Source: a virus (Duplodnaviria; Caudoviricetes). From it: a DNA stretch of 64,000 nt. The stretch lies in the IMG/VR virus record IMGVR_UViG_3300032007_000028. One strand, written 5' to 3'. The translations under genes were made by a program, and so were the position numbers. The notes under the pieces were generated by a model. The model was not told the DNA's origin, searched no databases, and saw only the letters and a program-made list of their open reading frames with translations. Shown piece after piece: positions 19,104 to 40,056 of this stretch. The stretch's first letter is position 1. The number at the start of each line of letters is the position of its first letter.

Positions 19104-20786
19104 TTACGCCTTACGCGAAACCTTCCCCTTCAGTTTGAAGACTTCGTTCTCGTATTCGCCAGGAGCACGATACGGCATCTCATACGAAATGGATTCTACG
19201 ACGAGGGAACCATCGCGAACTTTGTATTCGAACGAGAACTTGTCACCTTCTTTGAACGTCTTGGAAACGCTTTCGCAGAGGTTCTTGCCCTTGTTTCCGA
19301 ATTCGAACGACACCGTACGAGTCTTATTGCCCTTTGCGAAACCTATTTCGCCCTCCACGATGATATTCGTACCGTCAGTGGAAACGCTCTTCGTCTCGAA
19401 CGTCTTGACGTTTTCGTAGATTTCCGTGAGCGCGTCTTCCATGAGTCGGTTGAACGACTTGTCGTCGAAGTCAAGCGATTCGAATTCGACTTCGTTCTCG
19501 TCATCTATCTCAATCTTCTCTTCCTCTTCTTCGGGCTTTTCGGGCTCTATGTCGGGCAAATCGACTTCCTTTCCAGTCGTGGAATCGTCTTCTATTTCAG
19601 GCTCAACGCTAAGTTCAGCGACTTGGCCGACAAGACCATAACCGTCTTCCGAACCGCAGTGGGGGCACGCTTCGCCTTCGTTGTAGATGTCGGAATCCTC
19701 TGCTTTTACCAGAGCGTCGGGTTTCTTGTAAATCAACGTTCTGCATACCGGGCATTGAAGTATTGCGTTGCCCACGTAAGAGTCTTTCAGATTATCGATT
19801 GAGTCAGCGTCGACGTCGACGATTCTCTCAACGGTGTCTTCCTCTTCCTTTTCGAGGGTTTCCTTGGCTTTCACAACTTCGTCTTTGTCGTTTAGATTCG
19901 CTTTGACGCCAAGCGAGACGTTGTCTTCCAATGCTTCTTTCACGGATTCGTACACTTCAGTTTCGTACATCTTCGCGAGGTCGTTCTTCGAACCTATCTC
20001 GAAGCCGTTCTGACGAAGGAACTCCTTGACGTGTCTGAGTGTGGTGGGAGAAGAGAACCAGCCGTAGTAACCGCGTCTGAGCAACGTCGCTTTGCCGTTC
20101 TCGACTTTCGCAACAGGAGTGTTGTAAGACCACAGTATTTTGGTACCGTCGGGCTTCTCTTCGACGCGAGCTTTTCCGTAGAACGACTTTCTGCTGTCGT
20201 ATTCTGGATTCAATTTGACAACGGGTTCTTCGACCAATTCGACGCCTTCTTTCACGGGCTTGACAGAGAACGTCGCGACACCGTACTTACCGTACTTGTC
20301 TTTTAATTCCTTCGCTTTCTTCTCAGCCTCTTCTTTAGAAAGACCCTTTGCGACGAAACCTATCTGCAGATTGCCATCGTATTTCTTTGCTTCGACATCC
20401 TGCCACACACCGAATTCTCCAGCGCCTTCTCTGAGCAAAGTCGCGTCTTTGATGAATTTCTTCTTGTCGACTTTGACTATTTCGCCGTTTTCGTCTTTTA
20501 AGTAGATTTCGTCAGAATAGCCTATCTTGTGATTGCCGTTCTCATCTGTAGTGATGGTGTATTTTTTGCCGTCGATGTCGACCTTATCGCCTGTGCGGGC
20601 ATACGAATAGGCATGACCCTTCTCGTATTTGTCTTTATCGGTCAAGTCTATCTCAAAAGTTCTCGACTTAACGTCTTCGGTAAGTTTCTTCTTTCTCTTG
20701 TTCGTCAGAGACTCTATATACGCTTCCTCTTCGTCACCAATGTCGTCCATCGATGCGAATGCATATTTCATCCCAAATAATGCCAT
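19104..20786 (-). CDS. Acidic multi-module protein with Zn-finger (putative internal head protein)
   Basis: CPVC...CPHC; modules separated by LTE/LRE/VKE/VYESVKE linkers. Confidence 0.55.
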   Translation of the reverse strand: MALFGMKYAFASMDDIGDEEEAYIESLTNKRKKKLTEDVKSRTFEIDLTDKDKYEKGHAYSYARTGDKVDIDGKKYTITTDENGNHKIGYSDEIYLKDENGEIVKVDKKKFIKDATLLREGAGEFGVWQDVEAKKYDGNLQIGFVAKGLSKEEAEKKAKELKDKYGKYGVATFSVKPVKEGVELVEEPVVKLNPEYDSRKSFYGKARVEEKPDGTKILWSYNTPVAKVENGKATLLRRGYYGWFSSPTTLRHVKEFLRQNGFEIGSKNDLAKMYETEVYESVKEALEDNVSLGVKANLNDKDEVVKAKETLEKEEEDTVERIVDVDADSIDNLKDSYVGNAILQCPVCRTLIYKKPDALVKAEDSDIYNEGEACPHCGSEDGYGLVGQVAELSVEPEIEDDSTTGKEVDLPDIEPEKPEEEEEKIEIDDENEVEFESLDFDDKSFNRLMEDALTEIYENVKTFETKSVSTDGTNIIVEGEIGFAKGNKTRTVSFEFGNKGKNLCESVSKTFKEGDKFSFEYKVRDGSLVVESISYEMPYRAPGEYENEVFKLKGKVSRKA

Positions 20787-20804
20787 ATCGTTTTACCCCC
20801 AGAA

Positions 20805-23519
20805 TCAGCCTTCTATCTCGACGACTTCTTCTTTTTCGTCTTCAACGTGTTTTTCGTCTTCAGCATGTTCTTCGCCGTGTGCGCCGTCTGCTTGCTCTAC
20901 GCCTTCTTCGTGGCCCTTTGCGACGTCTTCCGCCGCTTTGGAATCAACTACGTCGACGGCTTTGCTGAGCTGACCCACATGCTTGTATTCCTCAGAACGA
21001 ATGTCATCTACGATTGCGAGAAGTTTAGCTTTGTCCTCTTCGCTGATGCTTCCACAGAAGTTTATGGCGTCCGTCAGACCATCATAGTTGTCTATTGCGT
21101 CGATTTCGTCCTTGACGTTGTCGCCAATCTGATTCTTGATGCTGGTCTTGGCGGCATCGTCTTCGATTCCCTCACCCATCATCGAGTGATTGAAAGCGGC
21201 CATATTCTTCTCGACATCGCCAGCATTCTTATTCACGTGACCGACTTGTTTGGATTTTCTGTCGTAGATGCTTTCGCGAACTACCGCGACGTCTTTGCCG
21301 TCTTCACCGTCTTTGACTTCGAACCAATATCTGTTGCCTTTGTATCTGACGTAACCACGTTGATTTACACCTGAAGTAGACGCGAGGAATCTGAATCCAC
21401 GAGGAAGTTTCTCGTCGTCAGCAAACGGCTTTATCTGACCGTCTTGAGTCAGTCTCGGCTTGAGTATCGCCTTTATTTCGTTCTCTTCGGATTCGTTGAT
21501 GCAACGGTCTTCGCCCAACTGAAGAGGACCGTCGCTCATGTGACGTTCTTCCTTCAAAGATTCTTGAAGTAATTCGTCCCAATGAGAAATGATATAATTA
21601 TACTCGTCATCACTAATCACTTTTTCTGAATTCAAACTTCTTAATTGATTTACTGCGAACTCAACGTCGCTTGTTTCGTCAACCTCTTCCCAATCAATTT
21701 GATTATTCAAAATGTCTTTGCATCTAACGACATCAATCTTATCTTCCTTCAAAGATTCGTCGAGACTGTCGCATTCTGCGCCCAACAGTTTCTTTAAACC
21801 TTTGTAGATGGTGAATGTATCCACGTATCTTGCGGGCATTCCATATAAGTCGTAGCTTGTCCAACTCTCAGCCTCTTTTTTGGCGGAATCCAAAATTTCC
21901 TGACGCTGTTCTTCTGACAATCTCTCCGGGTCGCCATACTCTTCGTCATCTTTCCAAACGATATTTGCGAACTTGTCTTCTATTAACTTGTACGTATCTT
22001 TGAACTGAACGCCTAAGCCTAACGGGTCTTCATCTCCGTAAATCCACCAGAATAAGTCTTCGAAAGACAATTCTCTGGCTTCGACTAGAGACCGATTCTC
22101 TTCCTTCAAAGATTCTTTTATCCTGCATTTGCGCTTGTGGTCTTTGCCCTTCTTCTCGTCGTCTTTCTTAAGAGACTCACACGTTTCCTTGGAAATGAAT
22201 GCAACCTCGCTCTTGTGCAACGAATGACCTCTACCAGATGCGATGTCGCTTCTGTTTTTGGAAACCCACAGATACGACCTATCCATTTCGTCTACGTCAG
22301 TGATGAAGTATTCTTCGCCGTCTTTGGTGATGACCTTCTTACCAACTTCGATGCGCTGATACGGATTGTCGAGATTGCCTTTGAACTTCTCGTAGCCAGC
22401 GGGAGGTTCGTCCAAGCCCTCTTTGATTTTCCCTTCTTCGTCTTCGCATGCACCGAAAACGTCGAGACTGATGTCGTCCCATTCACGACCGTTGATGAGA
22501 TAACTGTTCTTCGCTTTTTCGTAAGCGTCTTCCATCTCTTCCTTCGTATCGTAAGTAAGTATGTCGAAGTCGCCGTTTTCGACGTATCTGACGGCTATTG
22601 CATATGTCTTCTTTTCTTCCTGAGGTTTTTCTTCTTTGGCTTCGACTATCTTATAGCCAGTTTCGCCATTTGATGCGGGACCCCATGCTACCGCCATCTC
22701 TGTGAGACCGTGTTTCTTCTTCAGTTCCTCGAAGCATTGGGCGAGTTCTTCTTTGTCCTCGTCGTTGAGATATTCCTCGTTTCCGTGAAAATCTATGAAG
22801 ATTTGCGCACCTTCGTAATAGCCTGGCTTGATTTCGAACTCGATGTCTTTCAAAATCTCACCACGTAAAGAAGTGTCTTCGTCTTCGCTATAGTAAAGTT
22901 TTGAGCCTTTGTCGTTGATTCTCTTCGTCATGTCGTAGAGGTCGTCTTCGAGTTCTTCGACTTCCCATTCGTCCAACGTACATACGCCGTTCGAATATTC
23001 GTCGAAGTGCTCGTTCATGAACGCCTCAAGATATTCGTCCCAATCGCCATCTTCGTCTTCGTCGTATTCGAATTTGGCCGCATCTTTTGCGGCATCGTAT
23101 ACGTTTTCGTAATCCATGAACACAAGCAAGGGAAGAAAATCGGCACCACCGTCGCCGTAGAAGTTAGACGTACCTTCGTTGAGCTGTTTGGCTTCCACCA
23201 GTTCGTCCTTTTTCTCCTCTTCGACGCTTTCGCACGCACAGCGAACTTTGTCGACGACCCAATCGATTGCGTTGGAGTCGTTCAGGTCTCCATCTGAGAA
23301 TTCGGAGAACAAATCATAGCCACAAAGAGCTTCGTTGATTGTCTCGAATTGCGGGAATTCCGATAAAACGGCCTTCGAATATCCGTGAACGTAGGGATTG
23401 AGAACGTCGTAGTTCTCCATAATCCCAAGACCATCCAGCTCGAAACCTTCGTCAATCAACGATTTACGAGTGTGTTCGAGTTTGGATTTCAATCTTTCGA
23501 ATCTGTCGATTTCTTTCAT
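20805..23519 (-). CDS. Acidic multi-module protein with C-terminal ferritin-like helical bundle (putative internal head polyprotein)
   Basis: Repeated ESLKE linkers; C-terminal DEIDAIDNYD...IRSEEYKHVGQL resembles a ferritin-like ExxH motif. Confidence 0.55.
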   Translation of the reverse strand: MKEIDRFERLKSKLEHTRKSLIDEGFELDGLGIMENYDVLNPYVHGYSKAVLSEFPQFETINEALCGYDLFSEFSDGDLNDSNAIDWVVDKVRCACESVEEEKKDELVEAKQLNEGTSNFYGDGGADFLPLLVFMDYENVYDAAKDAAKFEYDEDEDGDWDEYLEAFMNEHFDEYSNGVCTLDEWEVEELEDDLYDMTKRINDKGSKLYYSEDEDTSLRGEILKDIEFEIKPGYYEGAQIFIDFHGNEEYLNDEDKEELAQCFEELKKKHGLTEMAVAWGPASNGETGYKIVEAKEEKPQEEKKTYAIAVRYVENGDFDILTYDTKEEMEDAYEKAKNSYLINGREWDDISLDVFGACEDEEGKIKEGLDEPPAGYEKFKGNLDNPYQRIEVGKKVITKDGEEYFITDVDEMDRSYLWVSKNRSDIASGRGHSLHKSEVAFISKETCESLKKDDEKKGKDHKRKCRIKESLKEENRSLVEARELSFEDLFWWIYGDEDPLGLGVQFKDTYKLIEDKFANIVWKDDEEYGDPERLSEEQRQEILDSAKKEAESWTSYDLYGMPARYVDTFTIYKGLKKLLGAECDSLDESLKEDKIDVVRCKDILNNQIDWEEVDETSDVEFAVNQLRSLNSEKVISDDEYNYIISHWDELLQESLKEERHMSDGPLQLGEDRCINESEENEIKAILKPRLTQDGQIKPFADDEKLPRGFRFLASTSGVNQRGYVRYKGNRYWFEVKDGEDGKDVAVVRESIYDRKSKQVGHVNKNAGDVEKNMAAFNHSMMGEGIEDDAAKTSIKNQIGDNVKDEIDAIDNYDGLTDAINFCGSISEEDKAKLLAIVDDIRSEEYKHVGQLSKAVDVVDSKAAEDVAKGHEEGVEQADGAHGEEHAEDEKHVEDEKEEVVEIEG

Positions 23520-25664: not shown

Positions 25665-26300
25665 CTACTCTTCTTCCTCTACTTCGACTTCTTCCTCTTC
25701 GCCGGATTCATCGCTATGATAGTTCTCACGAAGGTCTTCGACAATCACATAGACATCGTTGTAGAATTCTTCAACTGCTTCATCCCAATTGGCATCTTGA
25801 GGAGACTGATACTGCTTCATGATTTCCCACAGGTCTTCGGTGTAGATGAGTGAGTCGTCGATAGCTTGAATGATAGCGTCATGAAGTTCGTCTTCGTCTT
25901 CGACATAGATGTCTTCGATTCTATCGATGACGTTTTCGATGATGTCGACGAGTTCGAACGAGGCGCTGTAATCGAAATGTTTGCCGATTGCGGAACGGAT
26001 TTCGCTTGCGCTGAGTTCTTCTTTGAGTTGTTCTTTCATGTTATTTACCTCTTGAGTATATTCTATCATGCTCCTGGCTTCAGTCAAGTACTTTTTCGCA
26101 GATTCAAGATTTTCGAAGAATCTTTCCGATTTGCCTGTACCTTTGTCGCAGTCATAGCCGTCGAGAACGGATACACCAGCCTCAGCATCTTCGCAGATAA
26201 CGGATTTGATGTTGTCGTTGTTATCACCATAATATTCGACAATGCGCTTCTTATCCGCGGTTTCGAACAGATGTCTTTGTTTTGAAGTTTCAATAATCAT
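25665..26300 (-). CDS. Two-module protein with C-terminal Ocr (T7 gp0.3)-like acidic DNA mimic
   Basis: DEDELHDAIIQAIDDSLIYTEDLWEIM resembles Ocr [28 protein letters not shown]; very acidic tail. Confidence 0.55.
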   Translation of the reverse strand: MIIETSKQRHLFETADKKRIVEYYGDNNDNIKSVICEDAEAGVSVLDGYDCDKGTGKSERFFENLESAKKYLTEARSMIEYTQEVNNMKEQLKEELSASEIRSAIGKHFDYSASFELVDIIENVIDRIEDIYVEDEDELHDAIIQAIDDSLIYTEDLWEIMKQYQSPQDANWDEAVEEFYNDVYVIVEDLRENYHSDESGEEEEVEVEEEE

Positions 26301-26318: not shown

Positions 26319-28061
26319 TTAATTTAGCGTGGGGTTTCCTTCTATTGTGAGAAAATCGTCGATTGGCATATGCGACAGTTTTTCATTGCCGACACTGCAG
26401 TATTCTTGCTTTTTGCCAACTATAGGCCCATCTTTGACGACTGTCACATAGTCGATTGACGGAGCGTTTTCGGCAACCGTTTTCCAAATTGAATCGAACC
26501 AATTAACTTTGCTGTCGACGGGTATTCTGAAGTATATCTCGCCATTGTCGCCACCGTACGCATATTTTATATTAGACGTACGCACGCGACAGAACTCTTC
26601 GTTCGTCTTTCTAGAAAGTTCTTCGAACAGGGACTTCGCTTCTTCGTTGGTCTTGTCTTCTAGGCTTTCGAATTTGCTTACGAGAGAAGCGATATCTTCC
26701 CTTTTCGTATTCTCTCTGAACCATTCGAGAAAGCCAGAATGTCTGTTCAACAACTCATTCAGATTCTTCTCATAAGACGCTTCTTTGAACATCTCTATAT
26801 AAGGATGGACGGAACCACATTCCAGAAGCTTGCCATCGTTGCGCAACATATATGGGGTATTCGATTTCAACATAGGTTCTTTCTTATTCTCGGTCAACGA
26901 CTTGAATCTCTCGTCCTCGTCATTGCCGTACAGACCGAACGAGAATGCGACGCCATTGGGCAACAAAGTGTATCCATCGCACGACTTCGCCAACGCATCG
27001 AATATAACGTTCGATGTGGTATATGTTTCGGAATATCTGTCGTCTTTTTCGTCTTTCTTATCGTGACTCGTAGTCTTCAGCTTTTTGCCCTTTGAGAACG
27101 AGAACGTGATGAAACTGTCCTGCGCAAGGGCGTTGGCAAGTTCCTCTGACGTCGTTTCATTCGGTCTTTCGATGATATACGTATCTGGATTTGCATCGCC
27201 AAGATAATAACCGGATACGCGAAGGCCATTGTTCTCCACATACGACACAGCGTTGTCATACGCGTCTTTGTTGTCGTCTCTTTTCTTTTCGTTGTGCTCG
27301 TCGACGTTCGTGGCAAGAATGACGTACTCTTCGCCAAATTTGACGTCTATGTGTTTGGACAATTCGTAGAAAAAACGTTTTGCGTTGTCGATGACCATCT
27401 GCTCTGAAAGACGCTCCAACGAAAGCTGACGAGACTTCAGCTTCTTCGATAAATCCTTCAATTCGTCCAAATAACCGAGATTGCGCATCTCCTTGAACAC
27501 GAGATTGCCGATGCCGAATTCTCCGTCTTTGGCGATTGATTCCTTACGCAAATCGTATAGGTCTTCGATGAAGTCGTAAATCTCTTCGTAAAGGTCATCT
27601 TCTTGCGTCGACTGCTTCGATTCATATAAAGACAACGGTATATTTCGTTCTTTGACGAAGTCGATGATTTTTTTCTTCATATCGTCTGGGATGACACCCA
27701 ATGACTTAAACTCGGAATTGTGTATGATGTCGTAAGCGGACCAATTCTTGCTTTCGTTTTTCTTAAGTCTGCGGTCTGAAATGAAGAAACCAGTAGGCTT
27801 TGCGAGATTCGTGCCTTTCAACTCTCCCAAAGAAAACGACAAAAAATCATCTATGTCTTTATACTTTTCGACTTGGGAAGTACCATGAATGAAAATCGGA
27901 TACACGTCTTTCAGAGAAAAGTCTTTGTCTTCGAAGTCTTCCGCATCATACGCGGGGTCGAGTATGATTACTGGACGACGCTTCGCAGGCGGGTCGTATT
28001 TATGGTCGTTCGGTACCTTGCAAATCAATAATTCGAAGGGCTTTAATACATAGTCTTTCAT
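26319..28061 (-). CDS. Multi-module protein: PemK/MazF-like N-domain, NTase C-terminal helical fragment and two unknown modules
   Basis: AKRRPVIIL; DLYDLRKESIAKDGEFGIGNLVFKEMRNLGYLD; linkers LYES, LSEQ, LTEN. Confidence 0.55.
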   Translation of the reverse strand: MKDYVLKPFELLICKVPNDHKYDPPAKRRPVIILDPAYDAEDFEDKDFSLKDVYPIFIHGTSQVEKYKDIDDFLSFSLGELKGTNLAKPTGFFISDRRLKKNESKNWSAYDIIHNSEFKSLGVIPDDMKKKIIDFVKERNIPLSLYESKQSTQEDDLYEEIYDFIEDLYDLRKESIAKDGEFGIGNLVFKEMRNLGYLDELKDLSKKLKSRQLSLERLSEQMVIDNAKRFFYELSKHIDVKFGEEYVILATNVDEHNEKKRDDNKDAYDNAVSYVENNGLRVSGYYLGDANPDTYIIERPNETTSEELANALAQDSFITFSFSKGKKLKTTSHDKKDEKDDRYSETYTTSNVIFDALAKSCDGYTLLPNGVAFSFGLYGNDEDERFKSLTENKKEPMLKSNTPYMLRNDGKLLECGSVHPYIEMFKEASYEKNLNELLNRHSGFLEWFRENTKREDIASLVSKFESLEDKTNEEAKSLFEELSRKTNEEFCRVRTSNIKYAYGGDNGEIYFRIPVDSKVNWFDSIWKTVAENAPSIDYVTVVKDGPIVGKKQEYCSVGNEKLSHMPIDDFLTIEGNPTLN

Positions 28062-28371: not shown

Positions 28372-31322
28372 GCGACTTCGATGATTTTTGGCGTATAGTC
28401 GTCAATCCACCCGTCTTGGACATAGTGATGTTGATATTTGCCCAAGGCCTTACCTAACGGGCTTGACTTATATTTGTCGTCGCTTCTCGTCGTCACCACA
28501 CCGAAGTCATAGACATACTTACCTTCGTAACCGTCTTCGTTGATGTCTGAACCGTAAGTATCTGCTACTTTATCGAGAGGTGCATAGATATAGTATATCA
28601 CGTGTCCACCGTAGTCGTCAAGATAACTGTCCAATTCCCATTTACCTCTGAGCACACCGCTTTGCGCGAGCTGTGCATAGTAACCACGCTCCCAGGCCGC
28701 ATCGACCATCTCACGATGAATCAACTCATCTGCATCACACACGAAGAATCTCTTCAGTTTTCTGTCATACAATATACGTAAAGCTTTTTCTGATGAGCGT
28801 AGCATATTCGCCACTTCGTAAGGACTTTCCGTCGTGAATATCTCTTTATCATCATCCACGTACTCTTCTTTCAAAGACTCATGGGCGTCTCTGACATACT
28901 TTATACCGTTTTTCTCACAATACTGTATGGCATATTCGTTGTTTGTGTGCACAGTAAGTCTTACGCAACCAGCGAAAGCACGCATGCCAATCGAAGTTAC
29001 ACTATTTGGAATTGTAATAGATGTTAAGGAGTCGCAACGAGAGAAAGCATCATCACCGATTGAAGTTACACTATTAGGTATCGTAATCGACGTTAAGGAT
29101 TTGCAACCAGCGAAAGCACCTATGCCAATTTCCGTTACACTATCAGAAATCGTTATGGAAGTTAAGGATTCACAGTCATAAAAAGCGGCCCCGCCAATTT
29201 CCGTTACACTTTTTGGAATTGTTATTGACGTTAAGGAGGCACACCCAAAAAAAGCACTTTCGCCAATTCTCGTTATGCCACTAGGTATCATAATTGACTT
29301 TAAGGATGTGCAACCAGCGAAAACGGCTCTGCCAATTTCCGTTACACTGTCTGATACTGTAATTGACTCTAAAGACCTACAGGCAAAGAAAGCATCTTCG
29401 CCAATCGAAGTGACACTATTTGGAATCGTGATTGACTTTAAGGCCCCGCAGTCACGAAAAGCATTTTTGCCAATTCTCGTTATGTCGTCTGGTATTGCTA
29501 CTGACTTTAAGTAGGCACACCCAAAAAAAGCAAGGTCGCCGATTTTCGTGACACTGTTAGGAATCGTTACCGACTTTAATGATGTTGATGCTTTGACAAT
29601 CTCGGTACCATCGTCGCTTAAAGCAAGTCCATTTACGACTTTGGGTCTTTTTATAACCAACTTTGCATTAATTAAGTCAATCGGCAACGAGTTGAGTTCA
29701 GAATAATCTCGATAGTCTTTTTGATTGAACAACTCGAAATTTGTCTCTTTCAAGTATTCATTATCGTTCAAGAATTCATTGACATTAATCGTTCTTGGAT
29801 ATAACGCCAAGGCGTATTCTCCGTAAAACGTAGACGGGTCTAGAAAGTAGAAGAATCTCACCCCCTTTTTCGTATAATTGTTCCAGTGCTTCTTAGCATC
29901 TTTCGCGCTTGGATTATATTCAGGATGCCCTGCATGACCATATCTTCCAGTAGTGCACCAACCCGTGTTTATACCCAAATCCATCGAGGCTACGTAATCC
30001 AAAGGCTCGTATACTAAGTATCCATTCTTTTCGCCCAAAAAGTTATATTTGCCACGAACCTCGCGGGTCTTGCCCGACATCACGCGTTTTTTCTGAGCGT
30101 CTTTTTTGTCATCGTATAACGACAACAGCAAATCGTCCAATTGCTTTTTGTCGTACTTTAAGTATTGACCATAATCGACGGAAAGACCTTTGTTGAGCAG
30201 ACGTTGTTTGGCCTTCTCGAAGTTTTTCGCAGTATCTTCGCCGAACTTGGCGATGAAATCCGTCTTCGCAGATTCGTCCAATGCGCTTTCCCTAATCAAA
30301 GACTCGTCCAAAGGGTGCTCTGTCGACGCAAGAGCGTACTCTATTCTGTCGCGAAGTTCGAAGTACTTGTCTTCCCATTTTGAAAGTTCGTCGTCCAACT
30401 TCTCTCTGTCTATGTCTGGGATATCCGTCTGAACGGGCTTCTTAACCCAACCGTTTTCGATTGAATAGATGCCATTGCTTACGCCTTGGGGCTCGTCCAT
30501 TTCCACGTAAATCTCCGCAGGAATGCCTTTTATCTTTATTTCGTAGTTCTTGTTGAAGATAGAACGATACGCGGAATAAAGCAGAGGATACAACTCGTCT
30601 GGACACTCTAGACCTTCGCTGTCCGCTATTAAGTGAATGTCCAAGTCGCTGTCTTTCGTATAGTTGTAGTTGACGTTTGAGCCGATGAGAACGATGTCCT
30701 TGAGATTGAACTTGATTCCGTCCGCCTTCAACTCATCGACGAACGCATTTGCGATTTCAACAACTTTGTCTTTTACGTCTTGTCTCAATTCGTCGCCGTC
30801 GAATAACTTCTGATTCAGTTCGTCATGCTTCTCGATGTCCTCTTCGATATCGACGGCCAAAGCGTCGTGCAGTTTTGTGAAGTTGCCGACTCTGTTATTC
30901 AATTCCTTCTTTATATACGCCTTGTCCTCTTTCGAGATATCCGCAACGTATTCACCGTAATCGATGAAATCCTGTATCGACAAATCGTATGTGAATTTAC
31001 CTTCCGCTTTGCCGAATCTAAAAATGGTGGGCTTCTTCAATTTATATCTCTTTAGTTGTTCGGCGTCATCGAAGATTACCGTATCAGGCTCGGCTTCATA
31101 ACGCTTTACGTTCGTCGTGCCTACAGCGAAAAGAGGGAAGAACTGAGTTAAGTCCTCCTCGTCTTTCTCTTCTTCGTCGACAAACGTCTCCACAAGAATG
31201 ACCGGTCTGCCGAATTTTGCTTCTTCTGGGTCATTTAGATGCTCGTTTGGGACTTGTATTTTCCACATTTGCCATTCCTTGGGGAACGGCTTCTCTTTCA
31301 ATATGTTCTCTTCGTCAGGCAT
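28368..31322 (-). CDS. Multi-module protein: PemK-like domain, nucleotidyltransferase catalytic part, 'WCT' module, BspA-type LRR, unknown module
   Basis: FGRPVILV; GSNVNYNYTKDSDLDIH (GS...DxD); ASMDLGINTGWCTT; about ten 23-aa SITIPNSVTSIG-x-AF-x-C repeats. Confidence 0.7.
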   Translation of the reverse strand: MPDEENILKEKPFPKEWQMWKIQVPNEHLNDPEEAKFGRPVILVETFVDEEEKDEEDLTQFFPLFAVGTTNVKRYEAEPDTVIFDDAEQLKRYKLKKPTIFRFGKAEGKFTYDLSIQDFIDYGEYVADISKEDKAYIKKELNNRVGNFTKLHDALAVDIEEDIEKHDELNQKLFDGDELRQDVKDKVVEIANAFVDELKADGIKFNLKDIVLIGSNVNYNYTKDSDLDIHLIADSEGLECPDELYPLLYSAYRSIFNKNYEIKIKGIPAEIYVEMDEPQGVSNGIYSIENGWVKKPVQTDIPDIDREKLDDELSKWEDKYFELRDRIEYALASTEHPLDESLIRESALDESAKTDFIAKFGEDTAKNFEKAKQRLLNKGLSVDYGQYLKYDKKQLDDLLLSLYDDKKDAQKKRVMSGKTREVRGKYNFLGEKNGYLVYEPLDYVASMDLGINTGWCTTGRYGHAGHPEYNPSAKDAKKHWNNYTKKGVRFFYFLDPSTFYGEYALALYPRTINVNEFLNDNEYLKETNFELFNQKDYRDYSELNSLPIDLINAKLVIKRPKVVNGLALSDDGTEIVKASTSLKSVTIPNSVTKIGDLAFFGCAYLKSVAIPDDITRIGKNAFRDCGALKSITIPNSVTSIGEDAFFACRSLESITVSDSVTEIGRAVFAGCTSLKSIMIPSGITRIGESAFFGCASLTSITIPKSVTEIGGAAFYDCESLTSITISDSVTEIGIGAFAGCKSLTSITIPNSVTSIGDDAFSRCDSLTSITIPNSVTSIGMRAFAGCVRLTVHTNNEYAIQYCEKNGIKYVRDAHESLKEEYVDDDKEIFTTESPYEVANMLRSSEKALRILYDRKLKRFFVCDADELIHREMVDAAWERGYYAQLAQSGVLRGKWELDSYLDDYGGHVIYYIYAPLDKVADTYGSDINEDGYEGKYVYDFGVVTTRSDDKYKSSPLGKALGKYQHHYVQDGWIDDYTPKIIEVA
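28920..29590 (-). repeat. BspA/LRR_5 leucine-rich repeat array (69-bp period)
   Basis: Tandem L-x-SITIP-x-SVT-x-IG-x-x-AF-x-x-C units. Confidence 0.9.
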
Positions 31323-31536
31323 ATATCCAACTCCCGTCCTTCAAGGAATCTCTTGCGTAATCGCGAGCCTTTATCATTTTCGCGTAACTGAGAAGGAACG
31401 CATCGTCCGAATTGGGTTCACTTTTGGACTCGAACATCTTCTTTGCTTCCGACTCCAACTGAGCGATTCTTTCGTCAAGTTCGCTCTCGCTCAACGCGTC
31501 GATTTGCTTTCTCAATTCCTTTTTGCTCATTTTCAT
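31315..31536 (-). CDS. Internal in-frame small protein (antitoxin-like), probably expressed independently
   Basis: GAAGGTGGAC-ATG start; two sigma70 promoters just upstream inside the large ORF; stop overlaps the PemK-like ORF start. Confidence 0.55.
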   Translation of the reverse strand: MKMSKKELRKQIDALSESELDERIAQLESEAKKMFESKSEPNSDDAFLLSYAKMIKARDYARDSLKDGSWIYA

Positions 31537-34500
31537 GTCCACCTTCTCGCTTATTATAGCACGCATACACGAAGAATGCATCAACGATTTCGCACAGCGA
31601 TGCTTTTCGAGAAGATTATAAGACGCGTTATGCGCTTTGTCAAGAGACAGAGATTCGTACATCTGCTTAAGATTGTCTTTCGTGTCCTCACTCAAATCGA
31701 ACGCATTGAAAACGTCGTTGACGGTTACTGAACCGCGTTCGAGGTCTGTGAATATTCTTTGCGTGATTTCGTTCAATATATCTGGAGAATAGCGAGAGAA
31801 TTCCAGCAACGCGTCTGGGAAGTCTTTGTGATAAGACCAAAGTTCTTCGCCATCGTCTTCGTTCGCTATGAGATAGAACCCAGAATCGAAATTCGACTTA
31901 TCGAGAGCGGCTGCTTTGCCCTTCTCCCAGTTTTTCAGTTCGTCCCAATTCGATATCTGAGGAACATCGCCTGCCCACTCCTCTTCATAGTCATAACCGG
32001 TCAACTTCTTATACTGTTCTGCAGACATCTTACCGTCGGTGACCGCTTCCCATTCGAGATATTCATCGGGTATGGACCAGTCAAGGTCCTTGACGAAGTC
32101 GTCGACGTTGTTATACAGAATAAGCGTGCCTTCTTTATAATTATAAGCACTGTCGTTTAGATAATGTCTGATGAAGTTGAAGTCGACTTTGCCTTCCGCT
32201 ATGAGAATTTGTATCTCGTGCTCAGGATTTAATACTGCGTACCATGCTTCGCGCTCTTTGCCGTCAATCAAGCCCGCGACCTGCTTCACGAAAGGCGCAT
32301 CGGGAATATACGTAATAGCAATATCGGCGTCGTTGAAAATCTCGTAATGTTTCCTGTCTGGATATATGGCTAGTGCGTACTTTCTTCCGTTCTTTCTGTT
32401 GATGAAGAAATAGAAGAGTATACCGCTTTCGTGATAACCGTCCCAATGCTCTCTTCCGTTTTTGCCGTTTTCCCAACGCTTAGAGCCAGAGATGCACCAC
32501 TTCGTTCCTTTACCGTACTTTACGGAAGCCTCATAATTCGTTATTTCGTAAACGAGCCAATCGTCGTTCTCGTAGACAAGTTCTGCGCCTTCGTCCTCTT
32601 TACGGGCGACTTCTGCCTTCTCGTCGTCCTTTTTCTGCAACGATGAGACAAGCGATGCGAATTCGCTGAACGGCTTCTTCATCCATGAGTATATGTCACG
32701 CTGTTCGCCCTTCAATGAGTTCTTGTACTTATTGAACACGTCGACCGCTTCCTTCGCGTAAACACCGGAAGCCCAATCGCTGTATTTCATCGATTTATAT
32801 CCGTCAGATATCCACTTCAAAAATCTTTCGGTATCAGCTTTCGCTTCCGTTAGCGACTCGTTCATATCGATATGAAAATCGTTCTTCAATATATCCTTTA
32901 TCTCATCTTCATCGTTTTTTAAGAACCAGAGATAGTCGAGCCAGTTTACACCTGCTTCTGCCGCGTCTCTTATATTTGCTTCTGTTATGTCGTCATAAAA
33001 ATCGAAGTACTCGTTGAAATCATAACCCATTGCGTCTGGTATTTGAGGGTAACCATCGGGAAGAGTTGGGACATTTGGTATACCAGCCACTTTGCAGTCC
33101 TCTTGATTGAAAATCATTTCAGCGTGATTGCCAATAACGCCTACTGCGTGACGCATGTACTTGGAATCGTCTCTCGGTATGAAGAACAGAAAATACTCTA
33201 TTCCCAAATTGTCTCTATAAGAATCCCAGTCATCTTCATCGGTTATACACCAAGTGGTGTTGCGACCATATTTTCTGCTTGCTTCGTACGACGTTATCTT
33301 ATATACGTACCAAACATCGCTCTCCGCGACTCTCTCTGCACCTGAATTCTCTTTGTCTATGAGTTCTTTTTTCTCTTCGCTCTTTCGTACGTAGTTAGTC
33401 AAAAAGTAGAAGAACTCGGACGGGTCTCTCTTCATCCAGTAGTAATAATCGGTCTCTTTTCCGGAGTTGTCTTTTCTATATGATTGAAACAGCGCAAGAC
33501 AATCATTTGCACTGCGCATATATTCAGAAACATCTATGTCCGAATCTGACCATCCACGCCCGACTTTCTGATATGCATCGTCTAGCCATTTTTTGAAGTT
33601 CTCGTCATCCTGTTTCGATTCCGTTAGCGATTCTCTGAATGTACTCAACGTTTTCTCTACGAATCTATTGTTCACATCATCGTACTGATAGAGTTTAATG
33701 CCCTCCAATTTACTGAGCAGTTCTTTATAGGAAACCTCGTTTCTGTCCATGTAATGCAAAAGCTTATGAAGCAATTCCCTGTCTTTCCAGTCTTTCGATT
33801 TTATGAACCAAATGTTCTTGTATGAGTTGTCTTTCAAACCATTTTCGTATGCATCGCTCAAATGATGTACACTAAGTTCCTTGGTGTCTATGATACCTTC
33901 GAAATTGTTGTCTTTCGCAATCTTTACTATGTTATTTTTTAGTTTTTTATTTTGATATTTCTGCTTGTTGGGCACTCCACTTGAACCTTCGTTTACGTTG
34001 TCGCTGTTCGTCGGCTCTTTATTTGTAATTGCCTTTATCTGATTTGCATCGAATGCAATATACGACATGTCTCCACTTATCATGTCGCTGGCCTCGAAAT
34101 TGTTCTGATAATATATACCGTCATAGCCTCTGTTCTTCAACAATCTTCTTAGAAGTCTTGATTCGTCAGAGTTGTATTTATCCGCAAACGAATCGCACTC
34201 TGCGGCCTCCGCATCAGACGTAATATCGGTTTCTTTGCCTGTGCCTAGAGACCTTCCATTAAAGAAAAGCACTTTGTTTATTTCCTTTAATTCATCTTCT
34301 GTCATGTCGAAATCGAATATGCTTCCATATTTATCGAACGACTGACTCCACCACCAAAATAGAACAGAGTACGGGCCTGTTTCGCCAAAATCGTACATAT
34401 ATGCAGGATTCTTTATATTCAAATAATAAGAATAAACTTTGCCTGCATCAAATGGAAATTCATTTGCAATAGCTTGAGCCTGCGCTTTCGTCCCAAAATG

Positions 34501-37500
34501 AAAGCCTATATCGCCACGCGCGAATTTATCGAAGTTCTTATCGGTGCCGTGATACACAACAAGCAATTTTCCGTTGTTATCGCGAATACTGCTGTCTTTG
34601 AAAAACGCAATTTGCTCCTTACTTAAGACATTACCTTCGTTGTCTGTTTCTTGTAAATCTTCGTTTATATTGTCACTGCTTGTAGGATTTATATTGTCGA
34701 CGCTCTTTATAGCGTTCGGTAAAAACACCTCAATCTCAGTACGACGATTCTCTATGTCTTCATCACTGAGCACTATTATACCATCGTAACCGGACATCTC
34801 TGCCAACTCATCGAATCTCTTGTGTTCTCCCATTATCTTCTCATAATACATCTCAACGAGATACCAGTCTCCAAACGGATGATACATGCTGTCGTAGAGA
34901 GCAGAATCGAATGCTCCGGTTGTATCGACTAGAATAGTAGATATGACGTCGGCATCGAGCGACGAATCGTTGTGATGAAGAATCACTGGGTTCTCTAGAT
35001 TCAAGTACACGACTTTGTATTTGTCGCCATGCGAAAATATGTTTTCGGAACTCGTCGAAAAATACATGCCATCTCCAAACAGACCTATCTTCGCGAGGCC
35101 TCTGTTGAACGTATCGAACTCATACTTAGTCGAATGATAGCAAACGACAAGTTCTCCTTTTTTGTTACGAACTTTGCTGTTCTTGAAGAACTCAATCTGC
35201 TCTTTACTTAAAGGATTGCCTTCATTATCCGTTTCTTGCAAATCTTCTGTTATTTTTTCGGTATCCCAAAGTTTGTGTAAGGTATCCAAAATGAATTTAT
35301 CCTGCTCTTCGTTGAAATGCCATCTAGTGTCTTTGTTCTTTTCGTACCACTCAAAAGGCGTGTTGTTGAATTCCTCACTCATCGCACACCAATCACAGCA
35401 CATCTCTTCTAATGCGGATTCGGGCATCTTTGAGCAATCTAAACAACCATGAGGAGTTGGATTATCTCTAGAGAATCCTTCGATATCTTTAGGGTCTACC
35501 CAATGTTCACAGTGATGTTCGTTATTGATAACATGCTTAAAAGTAGCATCGTCAATCATCGCTTGTTCTTCTTTTGTGATATCCTCTTTATTTTTGGACA
35601 TTAAAGAATAACCAGCATATAACTCGTTGAACTTGTCGCTGTCATGGTTTGGATAACTTCTACCTATCTTCTTGGCATATTTATTTACTCTATCGATATG
35701 GGCATGAGTTCTCTCATCAAATTTCTTCTGATAATCTTCTTTATTGCCCTTTTTTACTACCTTCTCATTTAGATGAAAATAGTTTTTAATCATCCTAACT
35801 AATTTATAACCAGTCCAATTACCAATATTTTCATCCCAGTGATAATCTTGACAAGCCCCCTCTCTTAAACTAAAAACTTTATAAAAATCGGGTTTATTAT
35901 TTTTCCATATTTCAACTTTACAATAATCTTCAATATCTAAGTATTTGTCAATAATTTCTTCTAATTTTTTATATTGAATTTCATTGGGTTCATTAAATAT
36001 TCTAACACAAGTATCTTCTTCGGCGTGAGTGTTAGAAAATTCAGGATACCCCATTTTTTCTAATCCCTCATCTTCCCCATGATATTCATCGAGAATTATT
36101 AGTGAACCGTCTTCTTTTACATACCCAGCCGTACCGAGTTGGAATTCGTTTGTTTCTATATATTCTTGTAAGCGTTTGAAATAATGAACTTGCTTCAATC
36201 TCTTTTCAGCTTCTGCTTTGGTATCGTAAGTACCTAGGTTCTTTCCTTTTTCAGACTGAACCTGCCATTTACTGCCTTTTTTGACTATTTTTTCTGTCAA
36301 CGACTCATCCATTTCGCGCTCGAACTGATAAACGCGAACTGGCTCAGGCAATACTGAATACAAATCAGTTCTGTCGAAATCGTTGCCTAAGTCCGCAATC
36401 TTGAAGTCGCCGTAATCGTATACGTTTATCTCGAGGTTATAATCTATCACGTCATCATCAATTTCGTTCTTCGTATAGAAAAGATATCTGTCGATATAAT
36501 ACGCCGAAGCCGTAAGTTTCATATCGACTGCCTGGTCTTCGAGGTCCATATGAATGTAATTCGAACCATCACCAACCACCCACATGCCAGAATCCTTCAG
36601 GTGAAGCAGCCTCAATATACCATAATAGTTACGTTGAGCGTACGCAACCAAATAGTTCTTGCACTCATATACCGAATCGAAATACACGGCATCATAGTCT
36701 TCCGAGAACAAACAATGCGTGCTTTCGTTTATCTTATTGTAAGAATTATAGAACTTCGTACCGTCGTTCGTGGTATAGCCCCAATTTATCTCTTTATATT
36801 CTTTCTTCAGAGAGTCTATCAAAGCGGTCGCTATGCCTTTGCGACGTTCCGATTCCTTGACTTCAATCATCTGTATATACGCGGTATCCTCTTCGTCGTC
36901 AGCAACGGAGTACTGAAGATAGCCGAGAATGTTCTCTCGTATGATTCTGTCGTGTTCGTCCATCCAGTCATCGCCAACGTAGGCAATCTTCATGTAGTCG
37001 GATTGACCTGAATAACCACCAGTGCACTCTGTCCAGATGTTGTACTCACGACCTGCTTTGTCCTTCTTCGATTCTTTGCTCGATTCTTCAATATTCTTGC
37101 CGTTCGCATCTTCGAAAACCCTACCAAACGCGAACGTTCTTTTTAATTTTTCTATAATCTCGTCTGTCGTGTTCTCGTCGAAACGATACGACACGTAATC
37201 CGATTTGTCGGTCAGAAAACAATAGACGGCAGATTTATATTTCTGCACTTCGTCCAAATACTCTTCGATTACCTCGTATTGAGCGTCCGTCGGCTTCTTA
37301 AGCGCAACCAGCTTCGCACGAGGTTCTACGTACGTTCTTCCTTCGTTGAGCGTTATGATTCCCAAATCAGACTCGACGTAGTCCATGATGCGTCTATCGT
37401 CGTCAAGTTCGTATATTTCGTAATCGACGTCTTCGTCGTCTGGATACTCATCTCTCAAATCCTGCGCCAACGAATCGAATATGAGATGGAAGAACGTGAA

Positions 37501-37665
37501 ATGCGTCGCGTCTCCGTCTAGATTCACGGACGTCAGGTCGTAGACGTCGCCATTCGGCAACACTATCGATGGGCCAACTCCCAATCTTTCTGGACAGTTC
37601 AAAGACTGCGCGTATTCCTCTACGTCATCCAATGTAAACGACAAAAAACTCTTGACATCAACCAT
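31315..37665 (-). CDS. Giant polyvalent protein: GNAT, HD-like (DUF5662-type), two ADP-ribosyltransferase-like, HNH-like, two 'YGxxTxWCI' modules
   Basis: IEVKESERRKGIATAL (GNAT); HDSDK...HHCEHW...EMCCDW; YHST/YHGT...YLN...GYDGI (ART of polyvalent proteins); VHHL...N...HKLLH; likely ATG at 37665 just after the late motif. Confidence 0.75.
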   Translation of the reverse strand: MVDVKSFLSFTLDDVEEYAQSLNCPERLGVGPSIVLPNGDVYDLTSVNLDGDATHFTFFHLIFDSLAQDLRDEYPDDEDVDYEIYELDDDRRIMDYVESDLGIITLNEGRTYVEPRAKLVALKKPTDAQYEVIEEYLDEVQKYKSAVYCFLTDKSDYVSYRFDENTTDEIIEKLKRTFAFGRVFEDANGKNIEESSKESKKDKAGREYNIWTECTGGYSGQSDYMKIAYVGDDWMDEHDRIIRENILGYLQYSVADDEEDTAYIQMIEVKESERRKGIATALIDSLKKEYKEINWGYTTNDGTKFYNSYNKINESTHCLFSEDYDAVYFDSVYECKNYLVAYAQRNYYGILRLLHLKDSGMWVVGDGSNYIHMDLEDQAVDMKLTASAYYIDRYLFYTKNEIDDDVIDYNLEINVYDYGDFKIADLGNDFDRTDLYSVLPEPVRVYQFEREMDESLTEKIVKKGSKWQVQSEKGKNLGTYDTKAEAEKRLKQVHYFKRLQEYIETNEFQLGTAGYVKEDGSLIILDEYHGEDEGLEKMGYPEFSNTHAEEDTCVRIFNEPNEIQYKKLEEIIDKYLDIEDYCKVEIWKNNKPDFYKVFSLREGACQDYHWDENIGNWTGYKLVRMIKNYFHLNEKVVKKGNKEDYQKKFDERTHAHIDRVNKYAKKIGRSYPNHDSDKFNELYAGYSLMSKNKEDITKEEQAMIDDATFKHVINNEHHCEHWVDPKDIEGFSRDNPTPHGCLDCSKMPESALEEMCCDWCAMSEEFNNTPFEWYEKNKDTRWHFNEEQDKFILDTLHKLWDTEKITEDLQETDNEGNPLSKEQIEFFKNSKVRNKKGELVVCYHSTKYEFDTFNRGLAKIGLFGDGMYFSTSSENIFSHGDKYKVVYLNLENPVILHHNDSSLDADVISTILVDTTGAFDSALYDSMYHPFGDWYLVEMYYEKIMGEHKRFDELAEMSGYDGIIVLSDEDIENRRTEIEVFLPNAIKSVDNINPTSSDNINEDLQETDNEGNVLSKEQIAFFKDSSIRDNNGKLLVVYHGTDKNFDKFARGDIGFHFGTKAQAQAIANEFPFDAGKVYSYYLNIKNPAYMYDFGETGPYSVLFWWWSQSFDKYGSIFDFDMTEDELKEINKVLFFNGRSLGTGKETDITSDAEAAECDSFADKYNSDESRLLRRLLKNRGYDGIYYQNNFEASDMISGDMSYIAFDANQIKAITNKEPTNSDNVNEGSSGVPNKQKYQNKKLKNNIVKIAKDNNFEGIIDTKELSVHHLSDAYENGLKDNSYKNIWFIKSKDWKDRELLHKLLHYMDRNEVSYKELLSKLEGIKLYQYDDVNNRFVEKTLSTFRESLTESKQDDENFKKWLDDAYQKVGRGWSDSDIDVSEYMRSANDCLALFQSYRKDNSGKETDYYYWMKRDPSEFFYFLTNYVRKSEEKKELIDKENSGAERVAESDVWYVYKITSYEASRKYGRNTTWCITDEDDWDSYRDNLGIEYFLFFIPRDDSKYMRHAVGVIGNHAEMIFNQEDCKVAGIPNVPTLPDGYPQIPDAMGYDFNEYFDFYDDITEANIRDAAEAGVNWLDYLWFLKNDEDEIKDILKNDFHIDMNESLTEAKADTERFLKWISDGYKSMKYSDWASGVYAKEAVDVFNKYKNSLKGEQRDIYSWMKKPFSEFASLVSSLQKKDDEKAEVARKEDEGAELVYENDDWLVYEITNYEASVKYGKGTKWCISGSKRWENGKNGREHWDGYHESGILFYFFINRKNGRKYALAIYPDRKHYEIFNDADIAITYIPDAPFVKQVAGLIDGKEREAWYAVLNPEHEIQILIAEGKVDFNFIRHYLNDSAYNYKEGTLILYNNVDDFVKDLDWSIPDEYLEWEAVTDGKMSAEQYKKLTGYDYEEEWAGDVPQISNWDELKNWEKGKAAALDKSNFDSGFYLIANEDDGEELWSYHKDFPDALLEFSRYSPDILNEITQRIFTDLERGSVTVNDVFNAFDLSEDTKDNLKQMYESLSLDKAHNASYNLLEKHRCAKSLMHSSCMRAIISEKVDMKMSKKELRKQIDALSESELDERIAQLESEAKKMFESKSEPNSDDAFLLSYAKMIKARDYARDSLKDGSWIYA
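31615..31643 (-). promoter_or_regulatory. Intragenic consensus sigma70 promoter TTGACA-17-TATAAT
   Basis: Perfect consensus inside the 2122-aa ORF; a second extended -10 (TGCTATAAT) lies at 31553-31561. Confidence 0.75.
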
Positions 37666-37696
37666 AATCAATGAATTTAGCAAAGAAGCGCGCTTC

Positions 37697-38469: not shown

Positions 38470-38471
38470 AA

Positions 38472-38780: not shown

Positions 38781-38784
38781 CGAA

Positions 38785-40056
38785 TTACTCCTCTTCTTCA
38801 AGTTCCTTATCGAGGTCGACACGAGGGCTGACGCGCTCCTTCTTCACATCGACGATTGGTTCGAGACCGAGTTTCTTATCCCACTGATGTGCTCGTGCCA
38901 AGACTTTGTCGCTGACATTGTAGAGACCGTCGTCGTGATACGCTTTGTAGAGTTTGACGAACAGGTCTTCGAGGTCCTGATAGTCTTCCTTCGTCTCGAA
39001 ATCTTCGATTGCGCCTTGTCTGTCTTCTCCGTCGGGCCAGATATAGAGCCAGGAGCCATAGTAGGCTTCTTCGTTGTTCATGCCTGAAATAATTTCATTG
39101 AGTTGCCATGCAAGCACGCCATAAGGAATCTTGCGAGCTTCCTCTTTGAGTTTTGTATCTTTACCGAAGACGATGACTTTATCTTTCTTCGAAGATTTGT
39201 CTTTGCGATTAGAACGTTTAACGGATTCTTTGCACTCTTCGTTTATTCTTTCGAACTTAAGTTTGTGCCCGACAATCTTCTCCAAATCGTTGAACGACGT
39301 AAAGTCGCCAAAGCCTTCGTCACCATCGTCTTCAAGCCCTAATTTTTTAGCATCTTCAAGGGAGATATCTGCTTTAAACTTATTTCTGTTGGTTTTATCG
39401 TTATAGACGATTATAGCGAACCACGGCGCATCTTTCACATCATTGTTATAGTCCCATTCAATTTCCCACTTATCGTTTTTTGACTTGCCCTCTTCTAAGT
39501 TCTCGTCGTCGATTACTTCATCGGCATCATCGATATCGCTTTTTGGAATACCAAAGGCTTTTGCGATTTGACTCAATTCTGTTTCTGTAACGTCTGCTCT
39601 CGGCTTTCCGTCTTTATCGAAGAAATAATAGCACATTACTTCTTCATCATCGTTTCTGTTTCCTGATTTATTCCAGAAAGCATAGGAAACATTGGAGCCA
39701 TAAACATCGCCATATTCAGCTAATTTAAGTCCTAATTCTTCCGCTTTCTTTACTGCGTTATTGTAATTGCTGAAGGCTAAAATTTCTTTATCTTCGTTGC
39801 CCAATAAAGTATAGCCTTCTTTCACCTTCTTAGACCCTTTAATGAATTGTCTTTCGTTCTTCATGGTTTCTTTCAAATCATCCTTTATGATTTCGTCTTT
39901 GTCGTTAAAATCAGTCGCCTCAACGTCGCCAATGAATTTGCGAATTTCCTGCTTTGCTTCTGCGAGCGTGTCGTAATACTCGTACCAGTCGACAATGAGA
40001 TATTTACCGTCTCTCGTTTTGACGATTTCGTAGCCTTCGTAGTTTATGCTTTCCAT
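38785..40056 (-). CDS. Acidic multi-module protein (putative internal head polyprotein)
   Basis: Late motif upstream; LKE/VKE/LEE/INE linkers; AT-rich internal modules. Confidence 0.55.
   Translation of the reverse strand: MESINYEGYEIVKTRDGKYLIVDWYEYYDTLAEAKQEIRKFIGDVEATDFNDKDEIIKDDLKETMKNERQFIKGSKKVKEGYTLLGNEDKEILAFSNYNNAVKKAEELGLKLAEYGDVYGSNVSYAFWNKSGNRNDDEEVMCYYFFDKDGKPRADVTETELSQIAKAFGIPKSDIDDADEVIDDENLEEGKSKNDKWEIEWDYNNDVKDAPWFAIIVYNDKTNRNKFKADISLEDAKKLGLEDDGDEGFGDFTSFNDLEKIVGHKLKFERINEECKESVKRSNRKDKSSKKDKVIVFGKDTKLKEEARKIPYGVLAWQLNEIISGMNNEEAYYGSWLYIWPDGEDRQGAIEDFETKEDYQDLEDLFVKLYKAYHDDGLYNVSDKVLARAHQWDKKLGLEPIVDVKKERVSPRVDLDKELEEEE

Follow-up and report, generated by a model that had tools for sequence, protein, structure and literature searches.

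In a 64,000-nucleotide (nt) stretch of viral DNA (Duplodnaviria; Caudoviricetes; IMG/VR record IMGVR_UViG_3300032007_000028), hereafter the window, we analyzed seven open reading frames (ORFs A to G) located between positions 19,104 and 40,056. The DNA originates from bovine gut metagenomes and belongs to an uncultured phage with a T4-type head, and all genes of the window, including the seven ORFs, are encoded on the minus strand. An initial annotation, made from the sequence alone, had described the seven as mostly acidic strings of unrelated modules of 60-250 amino acids (aa) joined by short linkers with an L/I-x-E motif, and had proposed that they are packaged and cut in the head by a prohead protease. 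All seven ORFs were found where it had placed them, and Asp and Glu (D+E) make up 17-28% of their residues. In total they encode 5,790 aa over about 20 kb, with up to about 12 modules per ORF. Judged from sequence, all seven are polyvalent proteins of the phage, in which effector or anti-defence modules that fold independently are strung together; proteins of this kind do not form a new class, having already been published as 'polyvalent proteins' (Iyer et al. 2017). The linkers between the modules serve as recombination joints and are probably, in addition, cut sites of the phage's own prohead protease.

ORF A (19104..20786, 560 aa) consists of a variable N-terminal part of ~320 aa followed by a conserved acidic Zn-ribbon protein. 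This C-terminal part of ~240 aa follows the adaptor gene in all relatives and probably represents a fixed component of the head or neck, not cargo, and the description of all seven ORFs as swappable modules does not extend to it. ORF B (20805..23519, 904 aa) contains about eight modules as judged from homologue end-points and an AlphaFold model, including a widespread module termed B1 (aa 116-294) and a C-terminal ferritin-like module (aa 773-889). The latter (20853-21203) gave a sub-threshold match to the encapsulin ferritin-like cargo family NF058679 EncB (E-value 5.8e-8; 32.8 bits, with a cut-off of 90); encapsulin ferritin-like cargo proteins are naturally loaded inside HK97-fold shells. 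ORF C (25665..26300) encodes 211 aa with 28% D+E, and ORF D (26319..28061, 580 aa) comes after a 79-aa ORF (28079-28318). ORF E (28368..31322, 984 aa) has an N-terminal module homologous to that of D (32% identity), followed by NTase-like (aa 156-323), TxWC, BspA-type LRR (aa 560-800), and C-terminal modules. Its LRR region is a tandem array of at least seven copies of a 69-nt repeat (28958-29715), in which contigs from other metagenomes show many skips and back-joints and therefore repeat-number variation. The 2122-aa ORF F (31315..37683, perhaps starting at the ATG at 37665) contains GNAT (aa 244-316), DUF2188-like (aa ~466-505), and DUF5662 (aa 653-802) modules, two copies of ART-PolyVal (aa ~820-1000 and 1035-1225; PF18760, E-value 4.6e-29), two TxWC modules, and others, and its homologue P0013 carries LPD3 as well. 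ORF G (38785..40056) comprises 423 aa from the ATG at 40056, which is most likely its start.

The domain labels of the initial annotation fared unevenly. GNAT, the two ART-PolyVal copies, and the BspA-type LRR were matched in our searches, which also supported DUF5662 in F, while the ferritin-like label is weakly supported, among others by the match below cut-off (EncB/DUF2383). The labels PemK-like, HD-like, HNH-like, and Ocr-like found no named-family match in any search, and the sole match behind the NTase label was PHROG 36119, which corresponds to no named family. PDB sequence searches with E and F added LRR matches only, and an ESM Atlas search with module B1 gave no usable match. An embedded peptidase was rejected because none of the seven ORFs contains a peptidase family at an E-value of 0.01 or below or an HExxH motif.

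Every linker string quoted in the initial annotation was located at the position it implied. ORF B contains three linkers, IKESLKEE (linker 1, 22098..22121), LDESLKED (linker 2, 21741..21764), and LQESLKEE (linker 3, 21546..21569), and those of E are located at 30267-30311 and 28863-28883. In F, KINEST (36718..36735) comes just after the GNAT module and MDESLTEK is found at 36289..36312; KITEDLQE (35233..35256) marks the border between DUF5662 and the first ART, NINEDLQE (34648..34671) that between the first and second ART, and NVNEG (33985..33999) follows the second ART, with FRESLTES (33616..33639) and MNESLTEA (32842..32865) further downstream. What stays constant is [L/I/M]-x-Glu with a small or acidic residue after it, often doubled as x-x-E-S-L-x-E. 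The pentapeptide ESL[KT]E occurs seven times in the seven ORFs, where 0.04 is expected (no one of 1000 composition-matched shuffles reached seven); it is confined to B, E, and F and is found in none of the other 63 ORFs of the window. The shorter motif [LI]xE[SA] was observed 23 times in the seven ORFs against 9.9 expected (2.3-fold; 0 of 1000 shuffles), 6 times in the scaffold-protease (1.7 expected, 3.5-fold), and 3 times in the 97-aa N-terminus of the capsid protein (0.19 expected, about 16-fold), compared with 8 in the tail proteins (8.2 expected) and 13 in the remaining proteins (8.7 expected). The linkers of B, E, and F differ by synonymous codons. Internal Shine-Dalgarno sequences for re-initiation at the purine-rich linker DNA were considered and rejected, as no start codon is correctly spaced and the linkers of F lack a purine run.

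We collected 122 homologous proteins from 1.84 billion representatives searched with ORF B, together with a word-indexed search with F. Clustering of the BLAST end-points of these homologues defined 30 internal breakpoints in the seven ORFs, and [LIVMF]xE[SAGDT] lies within eight residues of 15 of them, compared with an expectation of 6.5 (standard deviation 2.2; reached in none of 2000 simulations). The corresponding controls were flat, both for Asp (6 vs 7.1 expected) and for Lys (3 vs 4.1) at P1, the residue before the presumed cut. In T4, an Asp at this position prevents processing. The AlphaFold model of B (mean predicted local distance difference test score, pLDDT, of 72) shows compact domains between segments with pLDDT below 50; these segments hold 23% of the residues and 9 of the 17 motif sites, with four more sites at their edges. 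The Pfam envelopes in F likewise start or stop beside KINEST, KITEDLQE, NINEDLQE, and NVNEG. Some modules also occur as stand-alone proteins: a 59-aa homologue corresponds to the stretch between the second and third ESLKE of B, a 203-aa protein to module B1, and a 132-aa protein to DUF5662. Across the 122 homologues, ES[LIVM]xE was found 128 times against 11.1 ± 3.4 expected, and ESLKE is their third commonest pentapeptide.

When every distinct context of six module families in the pooled proteins was counted, [LIVMF]-x-E stood directly before the module start in 71 of 78 contexts, including 48 of 49 for B1, 5/5 for the DUF2188-like module, 3/3 for ART, 7/7 for TxWC, and 6/6 for the NTase-like module; for DUF5662 it did so in two of eight contexts and lay within five residues in four more. 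The expectation that the motif is enriched at domain boundaries relative to chance is thus borne out by the breakpoints, the model of B, and the module contexts. In the B1 contexts, P3 is Leu 47 times and Ile once, P2 is any of eight residues, and Glu is invariant at P1. Six stand-alone B1 homologues without a leader start with M-[AG]-[TA]-[SA]-N-F, that is, exactly at P1' with the initiator Met at the position of the Glu, and two more leaderless variants in the alignment begin with MSTCNF and MAKSNF. Since the leaderless homologues begin exactly at P1', the tripeptide does not belong to the fold. Wherever a module is preceded by anything, the tripeptide is there, even if this is only the short leader of a stand-alone protein: many family members have N-terminal leaders of 5-25 aa ending in L/I-x-E (10-13 aa before TxWC and B1), and a leader-like site, SLIDE|G, is found at aa 24 of B. 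As read from these alignments, selection at the protein level acts on P3 and P1 of the tripeptide.

The prohead protease of the phage is encoded at 49120..50721 as the N-terminal part (aa ~1-175) of a 533-aa fusion of a gp21-type (S77) protease with a coiled-coil scaffold. Its identification in the initial annotation as gp21-like was supported by PHROG 207, 'head maturation protease' (E-value 1.8e-35), whereas the match to Pfam S77 (PF03420) remained slightly below cut-off (24.8 bits vs 27; E-value 1.7e-5) and phmmer found nothing among PDB sequences. With the AlphaFold model (pLDDT of the domain ~80), the top Foldseek matches in the PDB were chains A, B, and C of T4 gp21 (5jbl; E-values 1.3e-5 to 3.9e-5, probability 1.00, TM-scores 0.59-0.61), and on this model the protein has a gp21/assemblin fold. 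The candidate catalytic motifs ELDHP and G[IV]SSRG are kept in all relatives that cover them. We identified no other protease in the window.

T4 gp21 cuts after L/I-X-E (PMC9026906), and the linkers follow this rule as well as matching the sites in the expected substrates of the gp21-like protease of this phage. The scaffold portion, a long coiled coil, abounds in conserved [LIVM]-x-E|S sites, several of which are x-E|S positions starting directly after the protease domain. As had been claimed for the capsid propeptide, exon 1 of the gp23-like major capsid protein (48778..49071) contains three [LIM]-x-E|A sites (49039-49053, 49009-49023, and 48922-48936). In an alignment of seven phages, two of these [LIM]-x-E|[AS] sites are kept in six and the third in all seven; the latter, NINE|AFSNS near residue 50, is likely the maturation cut. 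The P4-P1 strings SLTE, SLKE, and NINE are common to the capsid or scaffold sites and the cargo linkers. Exon 2 of the capsid gene (46323..47300, Pfam Gp23) is separated from exon 1 by a group I intron (47301-48791; Rfam RF00028 at 48466-48791, 57 bits) carrying a 344-aa homing-endonuclease ORF of the NUMOD/HNH type (47412-48446), and in the relative G003, where the capsid gene is likewise in pieces, a related endonuclease is found at the same place.

Contigs from other bovine-gut studies, compared with the window over 19104-39103, revealed that the linkers are also the places where modules are gained, lost, and replaced, as the initial annotation had anticipated for related phages. Cassette deletions, insertions, and replacements have their breakpoints in or beside nine linkers. 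Protein P0017, which is 91% identical to B, is collinear with it over residues 1-473, ending exactly at ...ESLKE of linker 1, and again from residue 655 (LKEE...), with a different segment in between. The three linkers of B have 17-19 nt in common, with an 84% copy in E. Within B, a 195-nt deletion runs from linker 3 to linker 2, where 17 nt fit both sides, the same cassette is replaced by 237 nt in two runs, and a 303-nt segment stands in place of 21 nt just N-terminal of linker 1. In F, the segment from KINE|S to ESLTE|K is lost, 748 nt between two ESLTE linkers (FRESLTES and MNESLTEA, runs X3 and X4) are replaced by 478 nt, and 505 nt are inserted inside MNESLTEA in run X6 (net +504 nt, as one base is skipped). 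KINEST is a breakpoint in X3 and MDESLTEK in X3 and X6, and a collinear 105-kb contig from X6 departs from the window at NVNE|G and rejoins it at MDESLTE with other content. All remaining joints in the comparison fall in E's LRR repeats, except for one skip in ORF A that is weakly supported. Because contigs swap cassettes at the linkers and the linkers of B have 17-19 nt in common, the linker is an in-frame recombination joint for whole cassettes. A metagenome scan with the 17-nt sequence of the B linkers gave 119 single scattered matches, approximately the number expected by chance on a rough estimate, and none of them lies in a multi-linker ORF.

The late-promoter motif that the initial annotation had noted upstream of several of the ORFs was found as GCTAAATT, which occurs 15 times against 2.06 expected, always on the coding strand. 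It precedes C (26321-26328), F (37674-37681), and G (40077-40084), as well as the protease, adaptor, sheath, tube-region, and baseplate genes, its sites including 50782-50789 and 17513-17520. In relatives (loci L001, L002, L003, L013, and L020) the same motif stands before portal, protease, and adaptor genes and before the polyprotein genes of G004 and G006. GCTAAATT is probably the late promoter core of this clade, unlike the TATAAATA of T4, which was tried as the late motif and rejected because it occurs at chance level (2 vs 1.76). D and E, by contrast, have perfect sigma-70 promoters (TTGACA-17-TATAAT), at 31615..31643 inside the 3' end of F and upstream of E, and at 28343..28371 upstream of the 79-aa ORF that precedes D. 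Just one further perfect copy exists, in the early region, and sigma-70 promoters of this kind precede the early genes of this phage. Downstream of each of the two promoters in the cargo block comes a short acidic ORF (F's last 73 aa, read in frame, or the 79-aa ORF) and then E or D, a layout that looks like a duplicated early-expressed cassette. The 79-aa ORF showed no detectable similarity to these C-terminal 73 aa, and Pfam gave no PemK match that would suit a toxin-antitoxin reading of these cassettes.

The seven ORFs are situated within the head-morphogenesis block, flanked by the genes of the terminase, gp20-like portal, gp23-like capsid, adaptor, sheath, and tube. The gene order is large terminase (53791-55893), T4 gp20-type portal (51904-53784; Pfam Portal_T4, E-value 1e-41), protease-scaffold fusion, intron-split capsid gene, a small-gene island with sigma-70-type promoters, ORFs G, F, E, D, and C, head-tail adaptor (23560-24375, true start probably near 24270), ORFs B and A, and then the neck, sheath (16237-17457), tube, baseplate, and fibre genes. 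The phage is a T4-superfamily myophage, and the closest named portals, at ~30% identity, are from myophages of Firmicutes, namely Streptococcus phage vB_SagM-GXN1, Bacillus phages SP-15 and HSE3, and Listeria phage LIS04. No near-identical phage was found when the capsid region and F were compared by megablast with 50,697 phage records, and tblastn of F gave a single weak, irrelevant match. Six related IMG/VR contigs were retrieved through the protease and a seventh, L020, through module B1. No protease was seen in L020, which is uninformative because this contig is only 35% complete. In G001 and G002, no polyprotein genes lie between those for capsid and adaptor. G004 encodes a 2,540-aa protein with modules in common with the window in a different order, and in G006 two polyproteins are encoded immediately upstream of the adaptor. 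The cargo genes are located between the capsid and adaptor genes in three phages, and the block that they form ends downstream at the adaptor gene in the window as well as in G004 and G006.

A few further features of the window were noted. Between the adaptor gene and a 113-aa ORF, 736 nt (24376-25111) contain no credible ORF and no Rfam family at gathering score. Intergenic G homopolymers occur on the coding strand (minus), with 11 G at 44183-44193 and 9 G at 62685-62693, each with T[GA]ACCC after it. By chance, only 0.01 such nine-G runs would occur, and these could be slippage-prone or regulatory elements. A Mom-like DNA-modification protein is encoded at 44970-45620 on the minus strand (PHROG 1384, E-value 2e-56), a 207-aa ORF (50785-51408) shows a weak glucosyltransferase match, and a 489-aa ORF (40326-41795) has a domain in common with its copy in G004; taken together, these three ORFs suggest that the phage DNA is hypermodified.

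Because the linkers match the cutting rule of the phage's own prohead protease, the proteins are probably loaded into the capsid, cut, and injected. In the proposed scheme, the polyproteins would be made late together with the head proteins and built into the scaffolding core of the prohead, where the protease would cut after the Glu of the linkers to give separate proteins of 60-250 aa. The products would remain inside the head and pass into the host along with the DNA, and host proteins would then be modified on entry by the GNAT and ART modules; the scheme would amount to an enlarged, concatenated counterpart of the T4 internal proteins and Alt. Packaging, cleavage, ejection, and module targets are all predicted from sequence, and we consider packaging and cleavage in the head at the linkers a little more probable than its opposite. 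Several observations weigh against it. No common N-terminal targeting sequence was found across the seven ORFs, and the enrichment of the motif at N-termini is partly present in control proteins too (65 vs 41.6 expected). The cargo is strongly acidic, unlike the internal proteins of T4, which are basic. L/I-x-E is a low-information motif, and the role of the linker as a joint, together with the identical 17-19 nt in B, could account for part of its conservation. D and E may be made early and never meet active prohead protease, so that the cargo reading is weaker for these two because of their early-type promoters, and E carries ESL-type linkers despite its sigma-70 promoter. The closest complete relative, G002, is without such polyproteins, which are consequently dispensable for head assembly. 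In phage SPN3US, finally, every identified prohead-protease cut removes a terminal propeptide, N-terminal in all cases save the protease's own (PMC10052503).

Of the alternatives to packaging and cleavage in the head, one holds that the linker is an in-frame joint and flexible spacer only, and that the ORFs encode uncleaved multi-domain polyvalent proteins, packaged (like N4 vRNAP) or not. The cassette exchanges exactly at the linkers, the joint at which 17 nt fit both sides, the identical 17-19 nt in B, and the break in homology between B and P0017 at ESLKE would all be expected from such a spacer, and some polyvalent proteins are delivered unprocessed (Iyer 2017, PMC5512222). It leaves unexplained, however, why P3 (L/I) and P1 (E) are invariant and P2 free across homologues of less than 50% identity, why the linkers of B, E, and F differ by synonymous codons, and why they match the conserved capsid-propeptide and scaffold sites; moreover, L-x-E ends the short leaders of stand-alone proteins, where nothing is joined. 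We regard the spacer as unlikely to be the whole explanation. Selection on the tripeptide could also reflect cutting in the cytoplasm, in the producing cell or after injection, by a glutamyl endopeptidase of the host or another one of the phage, since the x-E|x constraint fits any Glu-specific protease and D and E are possibly expressed early from their sigma-70 promoters. Yet the seven ORFs have no peptidase domain or HExxH, the gp21-like protease is the sole one identified in the window, the motif is conserved in the expected substrates of precisely this enzyme, and the late-type promoters and head-gene neighbourhood fit the prohead route; we consider cutting by a different protease improbable.

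The proteins could also be no virion cargo at all, and instead cytoplasmic anti-defence or takeover proteins (D and E early, the others late) encoded by moron-like inserts in the structural region. The perfect promoters before E and D point in this direction, as do the islands of sigma-70-type promoters and small genes that interrupt the structural block at 37.7-46.3 kb and the lack of polyproteins in G001 and G002. On the other hand, the late-type motif of head genes stands before C, F, and G as well as before the polyprotein genes of G004 and G006, three phages keep these genes between capsid and adaptor, ART-PolyVal is a hallmark domain of proteins for which delivery together with the DNA has been predicted (PMC5512222), and the architecture of a leader followed by L-x-E resembles that of T4 internal proteins. 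We find a purely cytoplasmic role quite improbable. That one element of 6-8 residues (~19 nt) is both a recombination joint between co-infecting phages and a prohead-protease cut site is a tentative proposal, to which we give somewhat less than an even chance.

Polyvalent proteins combine 2-15 disparate conflict domains and are encoded by portal-terminase phages and conjugative elements (Iyer, Burroughs, Anand, de Souza, Aravind 2017; PMC5512222). They are predicted to be packaged and delivered with the DNA, their domains being released by proteolysis, and the published release model relies on embedded peptidases, either an MPTase or a C-terminal assemblin-like domain; such peptidases (MPTase, assemblin-like, LonC) are common although not obligatory, with the MPTase in about 36% of members (PMC5512222). 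The proteins described here resemble them in the multiple unrelated conflict-type domains per ORF, with ART-PolyVal twice and GNAT in F, and in being encoded by a portal-terminase phage in a virion-gene context. They differ in that no peptidase is embedded and that the junctions carry the tripeptide of a separately encoded prohead protease. A repeated linker or recombination joint is absent from a text search of PMC5512222, in which 'linker' has no occurrence. Cutting of polyvalent proteins in trans at linkers by the prohead protease was not found described in the searchable literature and would be new.

The T4 internal proteins (IPI-III) and the ADP-ribosyltransferase Alt are targeted to the prohead core, cut, and ejected (PMC9026906). 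They have in common with the present system a gp21-type protease, short leaders ending in L/I-x-E, here in many members of the module families, and an ART among the cargo, but T4 cargo is encoded in separate small genes with their own leaders and only terminal propeptides are cut, whereas the modules in the window are concatenated with internal sites, acidic, and without a common leader. In phiKZ and SPN3US, the distant gp21 homologues gp175 and gp245 cut many head-internal proteins after x-x-Glu with Ser preferred at P1', N-terminal propeptides of SPN3US may be cut in several places (PMC10052503), and megadaltons of protein are ejected (PMC10052503, PMC9026906); the motif there is A/S/G-x-E, however, and the cuts do not separate functional domains. 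The polyproteins made by eukaryotic RNA viruses, which Iyer 2017 brought in as an analogy, are likewise single products cut by a viral protease at short consensus sites, but their enzymes and domains are unrelated to those in the window, where cutting would occur in the capsid and the products would be cargo and not replication proteins. As a recombination device, the linker recalls the PeSL mobile regulatory cassettes, in which short conserved sequences on either side of variable genes provide T4-type phages with recombination points (Arbiol et al. 2010; PMC2839356); these are intergenic promoter/stem-loops, in contrast to the coding, in-frame linker of 6-8 aa in the window.

The population data document natural exchange of cassettes at defined in-frame joints. 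If the same element is also the cut site, any module placed between two linkers would automatically be loaded, released, and injected, and the phage would possess a combinatorial library of injected effectors of about 20 kb (about 15% of the genome). Cutting at the linkers would explain how polyvalent proteins without a peptidase release their domains, and would extend the internal-protein paradigm of T4 from a few small genes to tens of concatenated effectors. The sequence rule could then be used to find virion-delivered anti-defence proteins in metagenomes, to delimit dozens of uncharacterised effector modules at their exact mature ends, and to load foreign proteins into capsids.

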